Shown one piece after another: positions 1 through 11,889 of a stretch of 64,000 nt of DNA (the stretch's first letter is position 1; each line of letters starts with the position of its first letter). The position numbers and the translations under genes are program-made. Source of the DNA: Candidatus Omnitrophota bacterium (GTDB lineage Bacteria > Omnitrophota > Gorgyraeia > JAFGHF01). Location of the stretch: contig CP070837.1 in the NCBI GenBank assembly GCA_020341815.1, positions 780,954-844,953 of the forward strand. The letters are read 5' to 3'. The notes under the pieces are model-generated. The model was not told the DNA's origin, searched no databases, and saw nothing but the letters and a program-made list of their open reading frames with translations.

Positions 1-1483
1 GACCTCTCAAAAAACCTATTTCTTGAATTGTATTATAAAAGCTAACTCCCGAGACTCTCATATCAGGATGCTCATCGGTCAGTTCTCCGCCCACAAAGAC
101 CTCTGTTTCCCTGGCCTCTGTTACCCTGCCAGCCAGATAAATCGCAATGCCTATTATAATTCCCGCCAGAAGAAGAGCCGTAGCCAGATTCACATTCCAT
201 ATACCTAAGAACTCTACACTTTGTCCTATACTCGGAACAATAAACGCCCCCAGCGGCATGCGATAGGCAAATACTCCGAAGATAATGCACAATAGCGCAA
301 GAAAAGCCGAAGGCATCCATATTGCCGGACTCGTTTCTTTCCCTAAAGGCAGCAGCTTCTGGTCTCTGACTTGCGAAGAAGTCTGCCCCAAAAACACGGT
401 GTGAACTAATTTCATAAAACTGGCTAGCGTCAAGGCGCTGCCAAACAGAGCCGCCACCAGCCAGACTATCCAGAGATATCCTCCATTTGAGGCCGTCTTT
501 ATTATACCCTGATAAACCAGCCATTTTGAAGCAAATCCATTAAAAGGCGGCACACCCGATATGGCCAGGGAAGCTATTAAAAATGAAACAAAAGTAATAG
601 GCATAAACTTAACAAAACCGCCTAAATTATCTAAATTGGTGGTTCCGCTTTTCTTTTCTACGGCCCCGCCCGATAAGAATAAACAGGACTTATACACCGC
701 ATTGTTAAGCATATGAAACAAGCCTCCGGCAATACCTATGGGATTGCCCGTTCCGATACCCAAGACCATATACCCTACCTGACTGACTGCATGATATCCC
801 AATAGACGCTTTAAATCGTGTTGGATAAGTGCCATCATTACTGCGGCCACTATAGTAAAACTTCCCACGGCCATCAAGAGGGTATTCATCGCGCTATTCA
901 TCTGAAACAAATCCAGAGAAATCCTGGCCAGAAAATATATTCCCAGTAGCTTATCCAGAGATGCCGGCAAATACGCGGTAACAGGCGTGGGGGCGTCTTC
1001 CGCCGTATCGGGAATCCAGGTATGAAGCGGCATTGCTCCGGCCTTGGCAAATGCACCGGCGGCAAAACACAGGTATGCCCAGACTGCCGGCTTAGAGGTT
1101 AAGGCTATGCTTATTTTATCCATCTGGAGCGTCCCGGTGAGTTGACCTACAAAAGCCAATCCCAAAATCATCAGGGCATCCGCTGCACCGATTATAATAA
1201 ATGTCTTCTTGGCCGTATAAAGAGTATTTTCCTTCTGCCCGAAACCAATCAGCAAGTAGAGAAGCAACCCCAGAAATCCCCAGAATACCATAAACAAAAT
1301 AAGATTATTTGAAAACACCGCGCCCAATGAAGACAGTAAAGTAAGCACAAGATAGGAATAATAGCGCCAAAGACCTTTTCTTCCCCGCATAAAGGCGGAT
1401 GAATAAAAAATAATCAAGAGAGAAAAGATACCGATGAATATTCCTACAAAATTGGAGAGATTGTCAAATCTAAAAAACTGCAT
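1..1483 (-). CDS. Antiporter-like membrane subunit of energy-converting hydrogenase (NuoL/M/N - Mrp - HyfB/EchA family); C-terminus lies beyond the window start
   Basis: Minus-strand frame open from ATG at 1483..1481 to the window edge; absent from the ORF track because it has no in-window stop. Hand translation begins MQFFRFDNLSNFVGIFIGIF and contains AYLCFAAGAFAKAGAMPLH, the conserved motif of complex I/Mrp antiporter-like subunits. Start overlaps the stop of the upstream large subunit (TGATG). Confidence 0.75.
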   Translation of the reverse strand, partial: MQFFRFDNLSNFVGIFIGIFSLLIIFYSSAFMRGRKGLWRYYSYLVLTLLSSLGAVFSNNLILFMVFWGFLGLLLYLLIGFGQKENTLYTAKKTFIIIGAADALMILGLAFVGQLTGTLQMDKISIALTSKPAVWAYLCFAAGAFAKAGAMPLHTWIPDTAEDAPTPVTAYLPASLDKLLGIYFLARISLDLFQMNSAMNTLLMAVGSFTIVAAVMMALIQHDLKRLLGYHAVSQVGYMVLGIGTGNPIGIAGGLFHMLNNAVYKSCLFLSGGAVEKKSGTTNLDNLGGFVKFMPITFVSFLIASLAISGVPPFNGFASKWLVYQGIIKTASNGGYLWIVWLVAALFGSALTLASFMKLVHTVFLGQTSSQVRDQKLLPLGKETSPAIWMPSAFLALLCIIFGVFAYRMPLGAFIVPSIGQSVEFLGIWNVNLATALLLAGIIIGIAIYLAGRVTEARETEVFVGGELTDEHPDMRVSGVSFYNTIQEIGFLRG

Positions 1484-2664
1484 CAATACCCCATCTTCTT
1501 TCTTAGTTTTTCGGTCTTTGCCTGCGAAAGCTTAACCAGCTCTTCGCCATTATAAAGTTTTTTGCCTTTGGTAGTACGCACGGCCATTCTTTCGGTGCAG
1601 CAGTAACAGGGGTCGATGGCCGCTAAAATTATAGTTGCGTCCGAGATAGTCTCACCCACCACAGTAGCCTTATATGTGGGCAGGTTCATAAATGTAGGCG
1701 CCCTGACCTTATGGCGCACGGGTCTATTTGTGCCGTCACTCCTTATATAATGGAAGGTCTCTCCCCGGGGTGCCTCGATATGGCCGATGCCTTCCCCTGC
1801 GGGGATATTCTTTAGCTTCAGGTCTATCTCTCCCGCAGGCAGATTAAGCAGGCAATATTTAATTATCTTTATGGACTCGAAAGTCTCCAGTATCCTTACT
1901 ACCGCCTTATCAAAGACATCACCGTTTTGCGTAACTATCATCTTCCAGCCTATCTTATCATAGGCTCCGTAGGGTGAATCCTTTCTAACATCCCTGGCCA
2001 CCCCTGAAGCTCTTGCGGTAGGGCCAAGGGCGCTGAAATTTATAGCCTCCTCTTTGGAAAGGATACCTATTCCCTTGGTGCGGGCATGAAGCACCGGGTC
2101 GTCTATCACGGCCTTCTTCAGCATCTCAAGAGTAGGCACGATGGAATCTATCTTTTCAATAACACCTGTTATGTCTTCGGTCTTAATATCCCGTCTTACT
2201 CCCCCGGGCTTAAACATGGCATAGTTATTTCTGTTTCCGGATAAAATCTCCATTACGTCCAGAATTTCCTCTCGCAGTTTCCAGGCCCACATATATACCG
2301 TATTGTACCCCAGAAAGTGTCCGGCCAGGCCCAGCCACAAAAGATGCGAATGTATCCTTTCCCCCTCGGCAATTATCGTCCTGATATATTTTGCACGCTC
2401 AGGCACCTCAACAGGAATAATATCTTCTACTGCCCTTGTGCAGGCAAAGGGATGACTGGTGGAGCATATCCCGCAAATCCTCTCCACCAGAAATGTTGTC
2501 TGGTCAAAGCTTTTGCTTTCGGAGAGTTTCTCTATACCCCGGTGATTGTATCCCAGCTGCACATCGATATCCACAACCGTCTCGCCCTCAACGGTAAGGG
2601 TAAAAAACTCCGGCTCTTCCTGCAGCGGATGATACGGTCCTATCGGAACTATGGTTCTTCCCAT
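1483..2664 (-). CDS. [NiFe] hydrogenase group 4 large subunit (NuoD-like, EchE/MbhL type)
   Basis: Track ORF 1483..2667 (TTG); ATG at 2664 gives [13 protein letters not shown]. Contains both Ni-binding motifs: N-terminal RICGICSTSH (RxCGxCxxxH) and C-terminal DPCYCCTER (DPCxxCxxR), so it is a true hydrogenase rather than a cysteine-less NuoD. Start overlaps upstream stop (TGATG). Confidence 0.85.
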   Translation of the reverse strand: MGRTIVPIGPYHPLQEEPEFFTLTVEGETVVDIDVQLGYNHRGIEKLSESKSFDQTTFLVERICGICSTSHPFACTRAVEDIIPVEVPERAKYIRTIIAEGERIHSHLLWLGLAGHFLGYNTVYMWAWKLREEILDVMEILSGNRNNYAMFKPGGVRRDIKTEDITGVIEKIDSIVPTLEMLKKAVIDDPVLHARTKGIGILSKEEAINFSALGPTARASGVARDVRKDSPYGAYDKIGWKMIVTQNGDVFDKAVVRILETFESIKIIKYCLLNLPAGEIDLKLKNIPAGEGIGHIEAPRGETFHYIRSDGTNRPVRHKVRAPTFMNLPTYKATVVGETISDATIILAAIDPCYCCTERMAVRTTKGKKLYNGEELVKLSQAKTEKLRKKMGY

Positions 2665-3137
2665 CAAACTCCTCTATCTCTTATTGCGCTTTTGTCCCAT
2701 TCTTTATAATCGCCTCTTAAAGGATGAACTCCTTCGGGCCACGCCTCAGGTAAAAGAAGCCTTCTTAAATCGGGATGTCCCCGGAAATGTATCCCTAAAA
2801 GCTCATACATTTCTCTTTCTATCCAGTTTGCCGCCTCAAAGAGAGGGGCGAGTGAGTCTATTTCCAGCTTTGGTTTTGGCAGTTTTACCCGTAGAGAAAT
2901 AAGCAGGTTTATATCTTCAATAGTAAAATGATAGAGAATCTCCATATGATATCTTGCGTCTATCCCTGAGGCAATGTTGAACCTTGCCTTCAAGTCGCCA
3001 AAGATGTAACCGGCGACCTTAGTAATTGCTGAGGGCTTAATCTCAATATACACCCTCCTGGCGGATTTATCCAAAACCTCGATTATCTCTTCGGCAAATC
3101 TCTCTTTTATATCATTTAAGACTTCTTCTCTGGTCAT
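2664..3137 (-). CDS. NuoC-like subunit of energy-converting hydrogenase (EchD/MbhK, 30 kDa subunit family)
   Basis: 157 aa [17 protein letters not shown]...; size and position between small and large subunit genes; ATG start, 4-nt gap to upstream gene. Confidence 0.7.
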
Positions 3138-3141
3138 TTTT

Positions 3142-3564
3142 CTACTTCTTTTTAATTTTCTCTATCAATTTAACCACGCCGGCAATAATCGCCTCCGGCT
3201 TGGGCGGACAGCCGGGAATATAAACATCCACAGGGATAATCTTATCCAGCGGCAGGGGGCAATTATAACTATGGATGAACATACCGCGGGACAAGGAACA
3301 TTCTCCTATCGCCACCACAAGACAGGGCTTGGGCGCCTGCTCATATAACCTCTTTAATCTGACAACCGACTGGCGGTTACAGGAGCCGGTAATCAAAAGC
3401 ACATCGGCGTGCTTGATACTGGGGGCCAGAAGCATCCCGAATCTTTCAATATCAAATCTCGGCGTAAGGCAGTCCAGTATCTCTATATCACAGTTATTGC
3501 AGCTGCCCGTAGATAAGTGAAATACCCAGGGAGATTTTAATAATGCCTTCAGCTTCAAGCTCAT
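3142..3564 (-). CDS. [NiFe] hydrogenase group 4 small subunit (NuoB-like, EchC/MbhJ type)
   Basis: 140 aa; cysteine ligands for a proximal Fe-S cluster (GSCNNCD ... GEC ... GCPP), typical of NuoB/HycG-type small subunits. Confidence 0.8.
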
Positions 3565-3575
3565 ATCTTTATCCT

Positions 3576-4499
3576 TTACAAACCTTTTAAAGCCAGCAAA
3601 ACTGCTGCGGCGGCAATAATGGTCAAAGGTCCCCAGAAGAACCTTACCGCCTGGTCAATCCTGACACGGGGATTGGTATTCCTTATTACCGTAATCAAGG
3701 CAACCAGGCCCACAACCTTCAGCAGGCCGTTTAAAAGATGCAAACCGTCAGATCTTAAACCGCCCATAAATATAATTGCCAGAAAAAAGGGCAGCGTAAA
3801 CAAAAGCATATTCTTCATCAATCTATAAATGCCTAAGGCGCTGCCGGAATACTCTACCAAGGGGCCGGAGACAATTTCTGTCTCGGCCTCAGGGATATCA
3901 AAAGGAACCAGGGCCAGCTTTGCCTGCACACAAAAAACAGCCACCACCAAAGCTAAAGTTCCGGAGAGGCTTCCCGTAATAGCCCCGTTTTGGGTCTGAT
4001 AAGCCAGAATCTCTGCCAGTCTTATGGAAAAGCCGGATTTTATTACCGGCACAAACACCGCAAGCACAAAAGGGAGCTCATAACCTAAGATAAGCTTCAT
4101 CTCCCGCGAGGCCCCCAGGCTTGCTAAGGGGTTTCGCGAGGCAAAGCCACCCATTATTATACTGATAGAAGGGATAGTCAATAGATATAATACCACTATC
4201 AAATCCCCTAAGAATGTATCGCCCGAGCCGAGATTATTTATCCATAATAAAGTAGCTACCAGGATTACGCTGGTCAAGCCCGCAACAGGGGCCATCAAGA
4301 AGGTTGCCCTTGAGGCGCCCCGGGGGATAAGTGTTTCTTTGCCTAAGAGTTTTACGATATCGATTAAAGGTTGTAAAATGGGCGGACCCACGCGATATTG
4401 TACCCTGGCGGTAACCTTTCTATCCACCCAGCTGGCCAAGAGGCCTATAATAGCCGTTAACAAAAACCCATAAAAAATAAAATACAATATGTATATCAT
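3576..4499 (-). CDS. NuoH-like integral membrane subunit of energy-converting hydrogenase (EchB/HycD type)
   Basis: 307 aa polytopic membrane protein (MIYILYFIFYGFLLTAIIGLLASW...RVQYRVGPP...), NuoH/HycD family signature; ATGA overlap with upstream ferredoxin gene. Confidence 0.8.
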   Translation of the reverse strand: MIYILYFIFYGFLLTAIIGLLASWVDRKVTARVQYRVGPPILQPLIDIVKLLGKETLIPRGASRATFLMAPVAGLTSVILVATLLWINNLGSGDTFLGDLIVVLYLLTIPSISIIMGGFASRNPLASLGASREMKLILGYELPFVLAVFVPVIKSGFSIRLAEILAYQTQNGAITGSLSGTLALVVAVFCVQAKLALVPFDIPEAETEIVSGPLVEYSGSALGIYRLMKNMLLFTLPFFLAIIFMGGLRSDGLHLLNGLLKVVGLVALITVIRNTNPRVRIDQAVRFFWGPLTIIAAAAVLLALKGL

Positions 4500-5002
4500 G
4501 CCTTTTCTCTATCCCAGTGCGTAGAATGGACGATAAGATTATCCCCAACAAGAAAGGTGTGCTCATTCAGCTTCAAATCGGCATCTTTCAAACTCAGCGC
4601 CCCGTAAGGACAACTCTGGATGCAAAGCGGATCACTAAGCCAGGCCCTTCTGTCCAGGCAAAAATCACAACTATGCGTCAATAAAGGAACCAGCTCCGGA
4701 TATATCGTGCCGTAAGGGCAGGCATGACTGCAGGATTTGCAACTTACGCAGCGCATATTGTGCCTGGTGAGAAGTTTTTCCTTATCTTCCTGCTCCTCAA
4801 GCGCCTCTACCGGACAGGCATTGACGCAATGCGGCTCCTCACACCTGCGGCAGACCAGATAATATGTAGCCACTTCCGCCACCGAAACGATTCCGTTATT
4901 CCCGGGATGATAAAAATAACTGCATTTTACGACACACTCTTCGCATTCGCCGCTAGCACAAACATCCAGATCAATAAACAAGCGTTTATCTTTAGCGCCC
5001 AT
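4496..5002 (-). CDS. 4Fe-4S ferredoxin-type subunit (HycB/EchF-like)
   Basis: 168 aa with several CxxCxxCxxxCP-type clusters (CVSCKSCSHACP, CDFC...CIQSCP). Confidence 0.7.
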   Translation of the reverse strand: MGAKDKRLFIDLDVCASGECEECVVKCSYFYHPGNNGIVSVAEVATYYLVCRRCEEPHCVNACPVEALEEQEDKEKLLTRHNMRCVSCKSCSHACPYGTIYPELVPLLTHSCDFCLDRRAWLSDPLCIQSCPYGALSLKDADLKLNEHTFLVGDNLIVHSTHWDREKA

Positions 5003-5003
5003 A

Positions 5004-5822
5004 TCAGTCCCAGATATTAGGAAAGTTTTTTATCTTAGAATATTTAAAAACAGGCCCGTCTTTACAGGCATAATAAATCCCCAGACGGCAATGGCCGCAC
5101 TTTCCGATGCCGCAGGACATATTCTTTTCCATAGAAAGATAGATATTCTCTTCTTTAAAGCCCATCTCCTGTAGTTTCCTAGTGGCGAATTTCATCATTA
5201 CCGGCGGGCCGCAGACAATAGCAATGCCTGATGCGTAATCCATATCTACATCATCTAAAATAGTAGTAACCAGCCCCACATGACCCTGCCAGCTTTCATC
5301 CCCGGCATCAACCGTCAGCTTCAAATTCAGGTCTTTTCTTTCCCGCCACTTCTCTGTCTCGCTTCTATATACAAGCTCACGGGGCGTTTTACAACCCCCT
5401 CTAAAAAATAACTTCTTAAACTCATCCGAACGCTCCAGCAAAGAATACATCAGGCTTCTTAAAGGGGCAAAGCCGCATCCGCCTCCCACAACCAATAGCT
5501 CTTTGCCTTTAAAATCATCCAGGGGATAACCTTTGCCAAAAGGCCCGCGCAGACCCACGATATCGCCTTTTTTAAGCTGGTGAATCCTCTCGGTAACCCT
5601 GCCCACCTTCATTACGGTCACTTCCATAGTATCTTTCACCGAAGGCCTTGATGAAGGGGTAAAAGGGGCCTCGCCTACTCCGGGAATAGTCAATTCTATA
5701 AATTGACCGGTGGCAAAGGAAATTTCTTCTTTGGGTTTAAGCTTGATTGTCTTTATGGTCGGGGTCTCTGTGGTAACTTCGAGGACCTTTGTCTCTATGG
5801 GGCTGTAAGGATTATTGGGCAT
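5004..5822 (-). CDS. FAD/NAD(P)-binding ferredoxin-reductase-like subunit with C-terminal [2Fe-2S] motif (AsrB / sulfhydrogenase gamma HydG-like)
   Basis: 272 aa; FNR-like barrel plus GGGCGFAP nucleotide-binding motif and C-terminal CGIGKCGHC cluster, as in PyrK/AsrB/HydG proteins. Confidence 0.75.
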   Translation of the reverse strand: MPNNPYSPIETKVLEVTTETPTIKTIKLKPKEEISFATGQFIELTIPGVGEAPFTPSSRPSVKDTMEVTVMKVGRVTERIHQLKKGDIVGLRGPFGKGYPLDDFKGKELLVVGGGCGFAPLRSLMYSLLERSDEFKKLFFRGGCKTPRELVYRSETEKWRERKDLNLKLTVDAGDESWQGHVGLVTTILDDVDMDYASGIAIVCGPPVMMKFATRKLQEMGFKEENIYLSMEKNMSCGIGKCGHCRLGIYYACKDGPVFKYSKIKNFPNIWD

Positions 5823-6843
5823 TGCCTACCAGTTTTTTGAGAACCTTTCTGATGTCTATCTTTGCCGGACACGCCGAGATACAGCGGCCGCAGCCTGTGC
5901 AGGCATAGATATCGGCTACCTTGGGGAAAAAATCAAATTTTTTTTCAAACCTGTTTCTTAATCTCATCCATAACTTCGGCCGGGGATTGGCCCCGCCGGC
6001 AACCTCGGCAAAATCCTTTATCATACACGAATCCCAGATGCGCAGGCGCGCCATATGCTGCGGGCTTTTCTGGTCATATAGGAGAAAGCAATGGCAGGTC
6101 GGACAGATAGTATTGCATGCCCCGCACTCTACGCAAGTCTTGGCTTCATCTTTCCAGATGTCCGACTCATATTTCTTCTCAATTATGCCTTTATATGATT
6201 CCTGATGTGGAATATCGTTTTCCTTAATATTATCCTCTACCTTTTTGGCTACCCAGTTCCTTTGCCCGTCTCTTTCGGAAAGGGCCTCATCAGGCATCTC
6301 TTCAAAGAGCGAGGAATGTTTATCGATAAGCGTTTCTCCTTTTTGTGAACCCACCTCCACAAGAAAACCTTCCTTGCCCTGAGAAAGATTAATATCAAAG
6401 TTCTCTCTGGGGTAAGGCTGAATACCTAAGGCCATACAAAAGCAGGTCTCGATGGCAGAGGTGCAGTCTGCGGATATAATAAGGTTTTGCTGGCGATTCC
6501 TGATATAGAAAGGGTCTTTATAATCATGATTTGTGAATACATGGTCTTGAACCTTGAAGCCTTTGAGGTCGCAGGCCTTAACTCCCACAATGGCAAATGG
6601 CTTGTTTGTTGAGGAAGGAACTTTATCGGTCTTGAAGTCTTCGGCAACTATTTCTCTGGCCCGCGAAAAAAAGGCCTTCAGGGGTTCATATGCTCTGACC
6701 TCGCCAATTACAACATTATCCGAAGATTGATTAAACTTTTTATAAAAACGCTGCTTATCCTTTTTAACAGGAACATAGACCTCATAATCGGCCTGTAATG
6801 CCTCGAGCAGCTTAACAAAATTATTTTTGGAAATATAATGCAT
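5812..6843 (-). CDS. Fe-S subunit, AsrA / sulfhydrogenase beta (HydB)-like
   Basis: 343 aa with C-terminal cysteine clusters CVECGACNTICPTCHC and CTGCGRCISACP; partner of the FNR-like subunit directly downstream (11-nt overlap). Confidence 0.65.
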   Translation of the reverse strand: MHYISKNNFVKLLEALQADYEVYVPVKKDKQRFYKKFNQSSDNVVIGEVRAYEPLKAFFSRAREIVAEDFKTDKVPSSTNKPFAIVGVKACDLKGFKVQDHVFTNHDYKDPFYIRNRQQNLIISADCTSAIETCFCMALGIQPYPRENFDINLSQGKEGFLVEVGSQKGETLIDKHSSLFEEMPDEALSERDGQRNWVAKKVEDNIKENDIPHQESYKGIIEKKYESDIWKDEAKTCVECGACNTICPTCHCFLLYDQKSPQHMARLRIWDSCMIKDFAEVAGGANPRPKLWMRLRNRFEKKFDFFPKVADIYACTGCGRCISACPAKIDIRKVLKKLVGNAQ

Positions 6844-6844
6844 A

Positions 6845-7483
6845 TTATTTTTTCATTTCTTCTCTCTTTACCAGAAAATAAGAGAGCGTCTCCAGTTCTC
6901 TGGAGAGATCCACATCTTTTACTTTGACATTATCCGGCACAATCAGTGTCGCCGGGGCAAAGTTCAGAATACATTCCACTCCTGCCTTAATCAACTTATC
7001 CGCCACTCCTTGAGCCTCTTTCGCCGGCACGGCTATAATGCCGATAGATATCTTTTTTGCCGGGATTGCTCTGGAAAGCTCATCTATGGACTGAACAACA
7101 ATATCTTTTACCTGCTTGCCTATTTTCCTGGCATCCACATCAAAGGCCGCTACTATATTCAGTCCGCGCTCCTTAAGTCCCGGATAAGCCAGAAGCGCCG
7201 AACCCAGATGCCCCGCCCCTACAACCGCAACATTCCAGGTACTGTCTTTTCCCAGTATCTTCTCCAAAGCGGCTTTTAACTCATCGGTATTGTAGCCGGC
7301 GCCGCTTACACCGAATTGACCAAAGTAGCCCAGGTCCTTCCTTACCTGCGCATCGCTTAAGTTGGTCCTCTCGCCTAATTCCGCAGAAGATATGGTGTGA
7401 ATATTCATTTTGGTTAATTCACTAATTTCTCTCAAGTAAATAAAAAGACGCGAGATGACCCCTTCAGGAACCTTTTTGTTCAT
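6845..7483 (-). CDS. rex: Redox-sensing transcriptional repressor Rex
   Basis: Track ORF 6845..7615; likely start is the internal ATG at 7483 (MNKKVPEGVISRLFIYLREI...). Winged-helix N-terminus plus Rossmann motif VAVVGAGHLG, typical of Rex. Stop is 1 nt before the next gene. Confidence 0.8.
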   Translation of the reverse strand: MNKKVPEGVISRLFIYLREISELTKMNIHTISSAELGERTNLSDAQVRKDLGYFGQFGVSGAGYNTDELKAALEKILGKDSTWNVAVVGAGHLGSALLAYPGLKERGLNIVAAFDVDARKIGKQVKDIVVQSIDELSRAIPAKKISIGIIAVPAKEAQGVADKLIKAGVECILNFAPATLIVPDNVKVKDVDLSRELETLSYFLVKREEMKK

Positions 7484-7496
7484 CTGCCGCCTCTGT

Positions 7497-7514
7497 TTGT
7501 AACAATATTCACAG
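7497..7514. promoter_or_regulatory. Rex-box-like palindrome A (TTGTAACAATATTCACAG)
   Basis: Matches the Rex operator consensus TTGTGAA-N4-TTCACAA at 5/7 and 6/7 half-site positions; lies 14-31 nt upstream of the rex ATG. Confidence 0.45.
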
Positions 7515-7517
7515 ACT

Positions 7518-7535
7518 TTGTGCCACTTTTCACAA
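7518..7535. promoter_or_regulatory. Rex-box-like palindrome B (TTGTGCCACTTTTCACAA)
   Basis: Left half 5/7, right half 7/7 to TTGTGAA-N4-TTCACAA; directly adjacent to box A and just downstream of a candidate -10. Confidence 0.5.
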
Positions 7536-7564
7536 AGAATAACAAATAAAAAAGGCTTTGTCAA
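7536..7564 (-). promoter_or_regulatory. Candidate sigma70-type promoter for the rex-hydrogenase operon
   Basis: Minus strand reads TTGACA-N17-TATTCT (-35 perfect, -10 at 4/6); the Rex boxes sit immediately downstream. Confidence 0.3.
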
Positions 7565-7628
7565 GGAAAATCTGTAAGGATTTTCCGCAGACCTCGCCGC
7601 TTTTTGGCGGGGCAAAATATAATTTCTA

Positions 7629-8660
7629 TCAGCAAATCCTGCCGCCGCCTATCACAACATCCCCCTGATAAAATACTGCCGATTGGCCCGGCGCAGGCGC
7701 CCATTGGGGATGTGCAAATCTTACCTTCGCCTTTTCCTTTCCCTGCGGAATAATGCTGGCGGGTGCTGCCAGATGCAGGTATCTTATCTTAACCTCTGCC
7801 TCAAGATGCGCCTCTAACCTACCTCCATATATAAAACTTACATTATCGACAATTAATTCATCTTTATAAAGTTCTTGCTTGAGCCCTACCACGATACTGT
7901 TATTTTCCCTATCGATAGAACTTACATATAAAGGCTCTTTATGGGAGAGGCCTATCCCCTTGCGCTGGCCGACAGTATAAAAAATAATCCCCTGATGTTC
8001 ACCGATAACCTCACCACCCTTCCTTAAGATAGGCCCGGGCCTGTAGAGCTCTTCGGGAATATATTCCTTAAGAAACTCTCCATAGCGATTATTAGGGATA
8101 AAGCATATTTCCTGGGATTCCGTGCTTTCCGCTGCCGGCAAATCTTTCTTGCGGGCAATCTCTCTTACCTGTTCCTTGGTTAAATTGCCCAGGGGCATTA
8201 AAGTCCTCTCCAGCTCTTCCTCATTCATTAAATACAGAAAATAAGACTGGTCCTTTCGGGAATCAATCCCCCTTTTAAGAAGGTGCCTTTGTCCATTATG
8301 TTCTATGCAGGTATAATGGCCGGTAGCTATATAATCTGCGCCTAAGGCCCCGGCCTTTCTAATTAACGTATCGAACTTTATATATTTATTACATCTGACA
8401 CAGGGATTGGGCGTGTGTCCTCTTTTATATTCTTCGCAGAAGTCGCTAATCACCCTCTCCTTAAATATATCCTCAAGATTCAGGACATAATGGGGTATTC
8501 CCAATCTGCGACCTTGAGCTCTTGCCTCTTCCAGTCTGGAATCTTTAGTCATCTGCATAGTCAGACCGATGACCTCAAAGCCCTCATCCTTAAGCAGACT
8601 GGCCGCAACCGATGAGTCTACGCCCCCGCTCATTGCTATAACAACTTTTTTTCGCTTCAC
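7629..8660 (-). CDS. mnmA: tRNA 2-thiouridine(34) synthase MnmA
   Basis: Track ORF starts at TTG 8708; GTG at 8660 preceded by GAGAGGT gives VKRKKVVIAMSGGVDSS, the PP-loop SGGxDS motif typical of the MnmA N-terminus. Confidence 0.85.
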   Translation of the reverse strand: MKRKKVVIAMSGGVDSSVAASLLKDEGFEVIGLTMQMTKDSRLEEARAQGRRLGIPHYVLNLEDIFKERVISDFCEEYKRGHTPNPCVRCNKYIKFDTLIRKAGALGADYIATGHYTCIEHNGQRHLLKRGIDSRKDQSYFLYLMNEEELERTLMPLGNLTKEQVREIARKKDLPAAESTESQEICFIPNNRYGEFLKEYIPEELYRPGPILRKGGEVIGEHQGIIFYTVGQRKGIGLSHKEPLYVSSIDRENNSIVVGLKQELYKDELIVDNVSFIYGGRLEAHLEAEVKIRYLHLAAPASIIPQGKEKAKVRFAHPQWAPAPGQSAVFYQGDVVIGGGRIC

Positions 8661-9693: not shown

Positions 9694-10596
9694 CTATCTT
9701 TTTCGACTTAAATATCTGAATGCGCCCAATGCTGCCTTGGAGCCTTCTCCTGCGGCGATGATAATCTGTTTCTCTACAACATCGGTAACGTCACCGGCGG
9801 CAAAAACCCCCGGGATATTGGTTTCATTGCGGCAATTCACTTTAATTTCGCCGTTTTCGTTTATATCTATGCCCCTGGCAAAGGCGGAATTGGGTTTTAG
9901 GCCCACTTCTACAAAGATTCCCTCAACAGCTAAGGATTCCTCTTTGTCTTTCTTTTCTATCTTAATACCTTTGACCATCTTATCGCCAAAGATAGAGGTT
10001 ATGCGCGTATTATTAAGGATAGATACCTTTTTACTAGAGTTGACTTTCTCCTGCATGATGGCGTCGCCCGTAAGATTATCGGCAATATTAATAATATAGA
10101 CGCGCCTGGCTATCTTTACTAACTGTAAAGCCGCATCCAGCGCAGAATTCCCCCCACCGACAACAGCAACGTCTTTGCCGGTGAATAAAGGGCCATCGCA
10201 GGTAGCACAATAAGTAAGCCCCCTGTTTTTAAACTCTTTCTCACCCGGAACGCCAAGCTCTTTTGAGGTTTTTCCGGAAGCAATTATCAGTGTTGCGGTC
10301 TCATATTTGCCCTTATCCGTCTTAACCAGAATAGAGTTTTCTTTTCTCTCAAGCGCCAGGGCCTGTTCGTTTTCTTTCAAGTCGATATTGTATTTCTTCA
10401 TGTGTTCTTCGAACTTTGCGGTCAACTCCGGACCGCTAATAAATTGATAACCGGTGTAATTCTCAATATTTCCGCTCCAGGCGGTTTGTCCGCCGATATC
10501 TTTGGTGATGACCAGAAAGTTCATCCTCTTGCGGGCGGCATATACGCTGGCGGTTATGCCTGCGGGGCCCGCCCCGATAATGATTAAATCATACAT
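9694..10596 (-). CDS. trxB: Thioredoxin-disulfide reductase-like flavoprotein
   Basis: 300 aa; FAD-binding GAGPAG, redox-active CATCDG and NAD(P)-binding GGGNSA motifs. Confidence 0.8.
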
Positions 10597-10600
10597 AATT

Positions 10601-10837
10601 TTACAATCCTAACAGCTGGCTTATTCTGTCTTTATCAAAGCCCGTTACGATTTCCCCGTTGATGTCCAGTACCGGAACACCCATCTGTCCGGATTTATCT
10701 ATCATCTCTTGCGCGGCTTCCTGATTTTCCGAGACGTCAACGTCTTCGAAAGGTATATTATTTTCCTTTAAGAATTGCTTGGCCCTGATGCAGTATGGAC
10801 AGGTAGGGATGCTGTATATCTTTACCTTATTATCCAT
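10601..10837 (-). CDS. Glutaredoxin-like protein (NrdH/Grx family)
   Basis: 78 aa with CPYC active site and thioredoxin-fold length. Confidence 0.75.
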   Translation of the reverse strand: MDNKVKIYSIPTCPYCIRAKQFLKENNIPFEDVDVSENQEAAQEMIDKSGQMGVPVLDINGEIVTGFDKDRISQLLGL

Positions 10838-10852
10838 TTTGGCCTCTCTTTT

Positions 10853-11296
10853 TTACAAATCCGTCTCTTTAATCCAGGCGCCATGCAGATTGCACAGCTC
10901 TATTACACTTAAACGCCCTTTATTCGCCTTAAGATGAAGTGCGCCGGCCGGATTGAGCTTATCAGGGGTAAGCGCAATTCTGGAGATAAACTCCTTGTCT
11001 ATGTAGAAATCGATATGCAGGATATAGTGCTCCGGCTGCATCGGATGCTGAATCTCACCCATCTTTACGTGCACGTCTTCGCAGCCCTCGGGTATCAGGC
11101 CGCATTTTTTTACCAGATTGATTACGGGGATGTGCTTCTTTTCCAAGTCGCTGAGATTATTTTTATCTTTGGGCAGCTTTATGGCATCTTCTTTTTCCTC
11201 AAAGGCGCTTTGAGGTGCCCCGCATACGGGGCATTTATCGGGTGCAGTGCCATTGATTGAGATAAACTTGCAAACCTTGCAAACCAGACCTTTCAT
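10853..11296 (-). CDS. Superoxide reductase (desulfoferrodoxin/neelaredoxin type) with N-terminal Cys4 domain
   Basis: 147 aa; N-terminal CKVC...CPVC pair; SOR centre motifs EKKHIPV and CNLHGAW. Confidence 0.7.
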   Translation of the reverse strand: MKGLVCKVCKFISINGTAPDKCPVCGAPQSAFEEKEDAIKLPKDKNNLSDLEKKHIPVINLVKKCGLIPEGCEDVHVKMGEIQHPMQPEHYILHIDFYIDKEFISRIALTPDKLNPAGALHLKANKGRLSVIELCNLHGAWIKETDL

Positions 11297-11313
11297 GGTT
11301 CACCCCCCTTTTT

Positions 11314-11889
11314 TTAATAATTTTCACAGAGGAGCTCGTAATAGCTCTGCGGATGGGCGCAGGCAGGACACTCCTCGGGTGCTTCTTTTCCTTCATGCAC
11401 ATATCCGCAATTGCGGCATTTCCATTTAACCACTGCATCTTTTTTGAACACAGTGCCTTCTTTTACATTTTTAAGTAATTTCCGATATCTTTTCTCATGC
11501 TGCTCTTCCACTTCGGCTATTTCCTTAAACTGCTTGGCTACCTCTTCAAAACCTTCACTCCGGGCGACCTCTTCGGCCTCTTTATAAAGCTTGGACCACT
11601 CCAGGTGCTCTCCGGCGGCTGCGGCTTGCAAGTTCTGCGGCGTATCCCCGATTATGCCTGCCGGGTAAGAAGCGGTAATCTCTACATCGCCCCCTTCCAA
11701 GAGTTTGAAAAACCTCTTGGCGTGCTCTTTCTCATTGTCGGCGGTCTCTAAGAAAATTGCCGCTATCTGCTCATAACCCGCCTTTTTTGCTACCGAAGCA
11801 AAATATGTATAACGGTTCCTGGCCTGGGACTCCCCGGCAAAAGAGGCAAGTAGGTGCTTTTCCGTCTTTGTTCCTTTTACGCTTTTCAT
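11314..11889 (-). CDS. rbr: Rubrerythrin
   Basis: 191 aa; diiron four-helix bundle E..EXXH motifs plus C-terminal rubredoxin-like CRNCGY...CPAC. Confidence 0.85.
   Translation of the reverse strand: MKSVKGTKTEKHLLASFAGESQARNRYTYFASVAKKAGYEQIAAIFLETADNEKEHAKRFFKLLEGGDVEITASYPAGIIGDTPQNLQAAAAGEHLEWSKLYKEAEEVARSEGFEEVAKQFKEIAEVEEQHEKRYRKLLKNVKEGTVFKKDAVVKWKCRNCGYVHEGKEAPEECPACAHPQSYYELLCENY

Follow-up and report, generated by a model that had tools for sequence, protein, structure and literature searches.

The rex-hydrogenase operon

The window (the whole 64-kb stretch of Omnitrophota DNA analysed here) contains rex as the first gene of an operon that continues into hydrogenase genes. All of these genes are on the minus strand and are listed in the direction in which they would be transcribed.

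6845..7483, minus strand: rex, 212 aa, at the head of the operon (Pfam, NCBIfam and PDB Rex hits)
5812..6843, minus strand: 4Fe-4S subunit like ShyB/HydB/AsrA, starting 1 nt past the rex stop (profile searches)
5004..5822, minus strand: FAD/NAD(P)-binding subunit like ShyC/HydG/AsrB (profile searches)
4496..5002, minus strand: 4Fe-4S dicluster ferredoxin-like subunit (profile searches)
3576..4499, minus strand: NuoH-like membrane subunit (profile searches)
3142..3564, minus strand: NuoB-like hydrogenase small subunit (profile searches)
2664..3137, minus strand: NuoC-like subunit (profile searches)
1483..2667, minus strand: [NiFe] hydrogenase large subunit, NuoD-like, with the Ni-Fe ligand motifs RICGICSTSH and DPCYCCTER
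1..1483, minus strand: putative NuoL/EchA-like membrane subunit (by eye from the translation)

The genes are tightly packed. Only 1 nt separates rex from the gene that follows it, and the junctions among the remaining genes (at least seven hydrogenase genes in all) are overlaps or gaps of no more than 11 nt. The start of the NuoL/EchA-like open reading frame overlaps the stop of the large-subunit gene, and minus frame 2 stays open from 1483 to the edge of the window, where it runs off. An earlier note on this DNA had placed the hydrogenase genes downstream of rex under the same control as rex itself, and co-regulation is indeed the natural reading of such packing, although an internal promoter may drive the hydrogenase genes independently of Rex.

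By its subunits, the operon joins a membrane-bound [NiFe] core of group-4 type to NAD(P)-binding subunits of the sulfhydrogenase-like ShyB/ShyC kind (HydB/HydG, AsrA/AsrB-like). It resembles the "Mbh-oxidoreductase" type (bioRxiv 10.1101/765248), in which a NuoB/C/D/H/L-like core is joined to an extra oxidoreductase module, a likeness of gene content and not a phylogenetic classification. The oxidoreductase function of that type is said to be unknown (bioRxiv 10.1101/765248). The papers on the type with which we compared the operon make no mention of a link to Rex.

The first gene of the operon encodes a Rex protein

The earlier note had called the gene downstream of the boxes rex, and the domain searches bear this out. 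The product matches PF06971 (58 bits) and PF02629 (84 bits) in Pfam and scores 266 bits against NCBIfam model NF003995, for which the cut-off is 126; crystallised Rex proteins in the PDB are matched at E ~1e-47. Both the N-terminal Put_DNA-bind_N domain, a winged helix, and the C-terminal Rossmann fold are present, as are the NAD-binding Asp and the Tyr/Asp pair that senses NADH, placing the protein in the Rex family. Its sequence is 100% identical to that of a protein annotated as Rex in a metagenome-assembled genome of Candidatus Omnitrophota.

The residues that contact DNA and NAD(H) are conserved. Residues 2-122 align without a gap to Rex of Thermotoga maritima, in which R12, S33, Q46, R48, K49, G58, G61 and Y64 contact DNA, and Y100, D115, K120 and, on the last helix, Asp191 contact NAD(H) (PMC8836258). 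Every one of these residues is present and is invariant across 18 Omnitrophota Rex proteins, with D192 as the equivalent of Asp191. The nucleotide-binding signature GAGHLG (GxGxxG) is invariant in Omnitrophota Rex, as are Y100, D115, K120 and D192, and the recognition helix QVRKDLxYFG is the same as that of Thermus Rex. Because the contact residues and the recognition helix are kept, the protein should read the canonical Rex box.

Two Rex-box-like palindromes overlie the candidate rex promoter

The region between mnmA, whose stop is at 7629, 5' of the rex promoter on the minus strand, and rex contains a candidate promoter followed by two Rex-box-like palindromes, as follows.

7559..7564, minus strand: -35 hexamer TTGACA (promoter scan)
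7536..7544, minus strand: extended -10 TGtTATTCT, after a 17-nt spacer from the -35 (promoter scan, TG present)
7518..7535, minus strand: Rex Box 1, TTGTGAAAAGTGGCACAA, 2 mismatches to TTGTGAA-N4-TTCACAA
7515..7517, minus strand: AGT linker between the boxes, holding them in 21-bp phase (rich in information in the anchored alignment)
7497..7514, minus strand: Rex Box 2, CTGTGAATATTGTTACAA, 3 mismatches to TTGTGAA-N4-TTCACAA
7490..7493, minus strand: Shine-Dalgarno-like GAGG, 6 nt 5' of the rex ATG (direct reading)
7483..7481, minus strand: rex ATG, with the boxes 14-52 nt upstream

The palindromes had been reported at 7497..7514 and 7518..7535, and both coordinates and sequence proved exact, with 3 and 2 mismatches, respectively. 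The positions were thus right; the letters given, however, were those of the plus strand, and the functional elements are to be read along the minus one. The distance of 14-52 nt from the boxes to the rex start also stood, with the ATG at 7483..7481. Our promoter scan, run independently of the earlier note, recovered the same promoter candidate, TTGACA-17-TATTCT (7564..7536, minus strand), which matches at 10 of 12 positions and has the TG of an extended -10. Its spacing lies within the 16-18 nt between -35 and -10 of a sigma-70-type promoter, and the 17-nt spacer is T-rich.

The boxes lie across the predicted transcription start. Box 1 begins one nucleotide past the -10, so the two boxes, with a centre-to-centre distance of 21 bp, span approximately -6 to +33. 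With a start predicted near 7529, Box 1 would cover roughly -6 to +12 and Box 2 approximately +16 to +33.

The boxes are non-coding, because the N-termini of orthologous Rex proteins (MNxKKVPEG) align with the ATG at 7483. A mechanical list of open reading frames had given a 256-aa rex starting from a TTG at 7615; we rejected this as an over-extension, since the same orthologous N-termini place the start at 7483.

A perfect 8-bp inverted repeat, GGAAAATC-N6-GATTTTCC (7565..7586, minus strand), abuts the -35. A similar repeat (GAAAATCGC...GCGATTTTC) occurs in one other locus (L001), and in many loci this position is taken by an A/T-rich "aaaaatt..cc" tract. The region 7565-7615 folds no better than shuffled sequences (z = -1.6) as a terminator or hairpin of mnmA, and a terminator scan found nothing there. 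The repeat may serve as a weak terminator of mnmA, as an UP-like element or as the site of a second regulator.

The pair of boxes, but not single boxes, stands out in the window

Single Rex boxes were not above chance in the window, and we therefore used a pair statistic and comparative data. At up to 3 mismatches there were 4 hits in 64 kb, where 3.0 were expected, and 36 of 100 shuffled sequences reached that number. Taken with the 3 mismatches in Box 2, this is what one would see if the boxes were a chance similarity within an ordinary promoter, or if just one of them were functional. The arrangement of the two boxes was another matter. None of 3000 shuffles produced two sites exactly 21 bp apart, and 16 of 3000 produced any pair within 40 bp; approximately 5e-7 pairs at 21 bp are expected in one given 150-nt region.

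The two boxes were also the best matches to a scoring matrix, which we built from orthologous Rex sites with the window left out. Box 2 scored highest (25.1 bits) and Box 1 second (23.5 bits), followed by a hit of 15.0 bits; the best score from 30 shuffles was 18.7 bits. The expectation that the boxes would be among the top matrix hits was thus borne out within the 64-kb window, where they are the top two of ~128,000 positions.

We found no further convincing Rex site in the 64-kb window by the matrix scan, and for this reason a wider regulon could not be shown. The third hit, at 11312-11329 on the minus strand (15.0 bits), is probably due to chance: its score is within the range of the shuffles and it consists of the last codons and stop of a putative rubrerythrin gene (..LLCENY*). 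The match is without a counterpart upstream of the superoxide-reductase orthologue in the one other locus compared for it (L021). The rubrerythrin gene belongs to a cluster (9694..11889, minus strand) that lies upstream of cysK-mnmA and appears from the translations, by eye, to consist of oxidative-stress genes.

11314..11889, minus strand: putative rubrerythrin (by eye)
10853..11296, minus strand: putative desulfoferrodoxin/superoxide-reductase-like gene (by eye)
10601..10837, minus strand: putative glutaredoxin-like gene (by eye)
9694..10596, minus strand: putative thioredoxin-reductase-like gene (by eye)

The tandem boxes are conserved in all Omnitrophota rex loci

We compared 80 rex loci (542 kb), obtained by an alignment-based scan of species-representative genomes; 52 are from Omnitrophota and the rest mostly from Planctomycetota. 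Both boxes, in one orientation and at a spacing of exactly 21 bp, were present in 52 of the 52 Omnitrophota loci, which as orthologous sites are not statistically independent. In 51 of them, no more than 180 nt lay between the pair and the start of rex. In the 52nd (L040), it was ~230-250 nt upstream of rex, behind its own TTGACT/TATATT promoter. In an anchored alignment, the information content peaked on the GTGAA and ACAA half-sites and on the AGT linker, and was approximately zero in the flanks. Positions G3, T4, A15 and C16 were invariant in both boxes in all 52 loci.

Which of the two boxes is closer to consensus differs by clade. It is Box 1 in the clade of the window, and elsewhere Box 2 is near-canonical (for example, TTGTGAATATTATCACAA and CTGTGAAATTTTTCACAA); orthologous boxes in other clades come within 1 mismatch of the Rex consensus. 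Because the better box swaps between clades, both boxes appear to be under selection, and the near-canonical orthologues tie the degenerate Box 2 of the window to canonical Rex operators. Both this swapping and the retention of two boxes, their orientation and their 21-bp spacing in 52 of 52 loci while the flanks were randomised argue against a chance similarity or a single functional box, and we regard that explanation as highly improbable.

The boxes are specific to the region upstream of rex. The published consensus, TTGTGAA-N4-TTCACAA, provides a test of specificity that is free of circularity, as our own matrix is not used. At up to 2 mismatches it gave 33 hits in the 542 kb of the 80 loci, and all 33 were just upstream of rex. 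The matrix derived from orthologues gave no hit of 14 bits or more elsewhere in the 80 fetched loci.

Operators of the CRP/FNR family have the core TGTGA-N6-TCACA. Read directly, each box (Box 1, TGTGAaaagtgGCACA; Box 2, TGTGAatattgTTACA) departs from this core at one position, as would be expected if the boxes were operators of a regulator of that family and not of Rex. However, the element travels with rex in 52 of 52 loci with very different neighbourhoods, and also in the Phycisphaerae locus described below, and there is no such site elsewhere in the 542 kb of loci. In addition, the outer bases TT...AA are conserved in the manner of Rex boxes, and TGTGA is preceded by T or C and in no case by the A that CRP sites have there. 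Based on these features, we consider operators for a CRP/FNR-family protein very unlikely and Rex operators the better reading.

The promoter is conserved with the boxes in several geometries

A TTGAC was present within 50 nt 5' of Box 1 in 52 of 52 aligned loci, and orthologues have TATACT or TATAT at the -10 position, abutting Box 1. There are three main geometries. In 32 loci, the window among them, 21-23 nt separate the -35 from Box 1, and the -10 abuts Box 1. The separation is 4 nt in 10 loci; there, Box 1 takes up the spacer, and its right half (TGGTACAAA) also serves as an extended -10. A third group of 9 loci has a separation of 28-35 nt, and one further locus (L011) has 14 nt. In all of these geometries the boxes fall between the -35 and approximately +40, which are repressing positions. 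The earlier note had described the region as a repressor-over-promoter arrangement; with boxes from approximately -6 to +33 in the window, and with the promoter and both boxes kept in 52 of 52 Omnitrophota rex loci, that description holds.

The promoter appears to be autonomous. Genes upstream of rex vary by locus: cysK-mnmA is upstream only in the closest relatives, and in some loci, such as L042 and L048, the upstream gene is divergent. Because the promoter and boxes are kept whatever the upstream gene, divergent ones included, transcription of rex probably starts here and not by read-through from mnmA. This agrees with the view of the region as a promoter in its own right, against the alternative, also raised earlier, of a start upstream of mnmA.

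In four loci (L028:3963-4001, L032:3966-4004, L033:2036-2074 and L043:3966-4004), Box 2 overlaps the rex start codon, and GTGAATATGGGTACAA encodes M-G-T-K. The -10 in these loci is apparently within the right half of Box 1 (TGGTACAAA). With Box 2 over the start and the -10 in Box 1, the rex mRNA would be leaderless or have a very short leader, and the operator would be partly coding.

The boxes do not vary as an RNA structure would. In most loci both boxes are 3' of the predicted start and would be transcribed, and each is a partial palindrome that could form a stem of 4-5 bp, so the element might act through small hairpins at the 5' end of the rex mRNA, in its leader. However, the halves do not covary: the left half (TTGTGAA) hardly changes and keeps its GTGAA, while positions 12-14 of the right half are degenerate, and these vary without a compensating change on the left. 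Moreover, Box 1 is between the -35 and -10 in 10 loci, upstream of any transcript. Rfam gave no hit, either for the whole window at the gathering threshold or for 7400-7700 at E <= 1. A function as RNA is therefore extremely improbable, and we continue to read the boxes as DNA sites for Rex.

Tandem boxes and rex outside Omnitrophota

The tandem arrangement also occurs in a Phycisphaerae locus (L054), which has two canonical boxes that are again 21 bp apart and are among the 33 hits of the published consensus. The Rex homologues of the Planctomycetota loci (L053, L055-L060 and L062-L080) are ~50% identical and have an N-terminal extension of 13-19 residues. At the thresholds used, there was no Rex box upstream of rex in the Planctomycetota loci, except in the Phycisphaerae-like L054 and L061. 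Since rex is mostly without a Rex box in Planctomycetota, its autoregulation is not shared by the whole of the PVC group.

The rex promoter module is associated with genes of hydrogen metabolism

The order of rex and the hydrogenase genes is kept in ~37 loci. Elsewhere, the genes behind rex differ in kind. In L021 (3948-8149), the tandem-box promoter and rex head genes for NuoE, NuoF and an [FeFe] hydrogenase (HydA); in L036 (3962-8433), they head hypA-hypB and a group-3b-like hydrogenase; and in L048 (3939-8322) and ~10 other loci (within L037-L051), the rex module heads the maturation genes for HypF-C, HypD and HypE. The 64-kb window itself contains no hyp or [FeFe] genes. In gene content, the rex promoter module is consistently linked to hydrogen metabolism.

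Discussion

We consider it very probable that the element of 39 bp at 7497..7535 comprises two operators through which the adjacent Rex represses the rex-hydrogenase transcript, and that repression is relieved by NADH. From the sequence comparisons we infer that Rex binds here, that it responds to NADH and that the genes are co-transcribed, as well as where transcription starts and in which direction the enzyme works in the cell. Repression by NAD+-bound Rex and release by NADH are the accepted mechanism for Rex (PMC8836258).

At a low NADH/NAD+ ratio, one NAD+-bound Rex dimer would occupy each box. With the boxes 21 bp (two helical turns) apart, both dimers would be on the same face of the DNA. 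They would occupy the DNA from the border of the -10 hexamer as far as approximately +33, covering the transcription start (predicted near 7529), and would block open-complex formation or promoter escape, with RNA polymerase either excluded or trapped. Repression would affect a single transcript, encoding Rex and the membrane-bound, group-4-type [NiFe] hydrogenase with its NAD(P)-binding ShyB/ShyC-like subunits. Once NADH builds up, Rex would bind it, change conformation and leave the DNA, the operon would be derepressed, and the hydrogenase could dispose of reducing equivalents as H2. Rex made from the same transcript would then restore repression, forming a negative feedback loop.

This arrangement has clear precedents. 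The rex-hemACD operon of Streptomyces coelicolor, rex of Caldicellulosiruptor bescii and the regulon of T. maritima all have an 18-bp inverted repeat of the TTGTGAA-N4-TTCACAA type over the rex promoter, and share with the Omnitrophota system an NAD(H)-sensing repressor with the DNA-reading residues R48 and K49, and rex as the first gene of an operon for redox metabolism. Omnitrophota differ from these systems in always having two boxes, at a fixed 21-bp phasing and with an AGT linker, and in having one strong and one degenerate half-site per box.

More than one Rex box per promoter region is also known from other bacteria. There are multiple Rex sites at Bacillus subtilis cydABCD and ldh. Similarly, two Rex sites are predicted at the ldh1 promoter of Staphylococcus aureus (PMC2883068). 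Our literature search brought up no tandem Rex unit with an invariant helical-phase spacing or with conservation throughout a phylum, and no published analysis of Rex for Omnitrophota.

Control of hydrogenases by Rex is likewise established. In C. bescii, Rex autoregulation and the binding of Rex upstream of the NiFe Ech and FeFe Hyd operons were found experimentally (PMC6391272), and, according to the same paper, Ravcheev et al. (2012) predicted Rex control of hydrogenase operons for Thermotogales and Clostridia. As in C. bescii (Ech and Hyd), Thermotogales and Clostridia, genes for an H2-evolving hydrogenase would be under a Rex box in Omnitrophota, with high NADH inducing H2 production. In anaerobes of the C. 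bescii type, however, rex is usually a separate gene and Rex has a global regulon, whereas in Omnitrophota the hydrogenase or hyp operon itself begins with rex and there was no second Rex target within the sequence compared.

Rex autoregulation and Rex control of hydrogenases are already textbook in other anaerobes, and no new mechanism is required here. The only unusual feature is the fixed tandem phasing, a modest variant that may indicate cooperative binding. Since the palindromes are imperfect, with a degenerate right half, the affinity of a single box may be low. It is possible, if on balance doubtful, that the 39-bp unit is an obligate composite operator, in which asymmetric boxes locked at 21 bp by the AGT are bound cooperatively by a dimer of Rex dimers to give a switch-like response to NADH, and that Rex in Omnitrophota (and in some Phycisphaerae, as at L054) is a dedicated local regulator of hydrogenase and hyp operons and not a global one as in Firmicutes and Actinobacteria.

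The regulation predicted here would link the sensing of NADH/NAD+ to H2 metabolism in a phylum without cultured representatives. The comparison of loci also yields a Rex motif specific to the lineage, which could serve for regulon reconstruction in Omnitrophota genomes. Across the phylum, four kinds of genes are found behind the rex promoter: group-4 [NiFe], group-3b-like and [FeFe] hydrogenases, and hyp maturation genes. That all four are behind one promoter suggests that these fermenters rely on H2 disposal as their main valve for NADH overflow.

Two metagenome-assembled genomes (MAGs) each have two rex-hydrogenase loci with their own tandem boxes (L030 and L043 in BS750m-G80, L001 and L008 in SRP256446_co1_219). 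These are either paralogous operons or a reflection of strain heterogeneity within the bins. Many of the loci (L001, L002, L005, L006, L008 and other "TPA_asm" records) have titles such as "uncultured Planctomycetia bacterium", although their Rex proteins are 78-82% identical to the Omnitrophota protein and their synteny is the same; the Planctomycetia titles are probably an artefact of taxonomic labelling.
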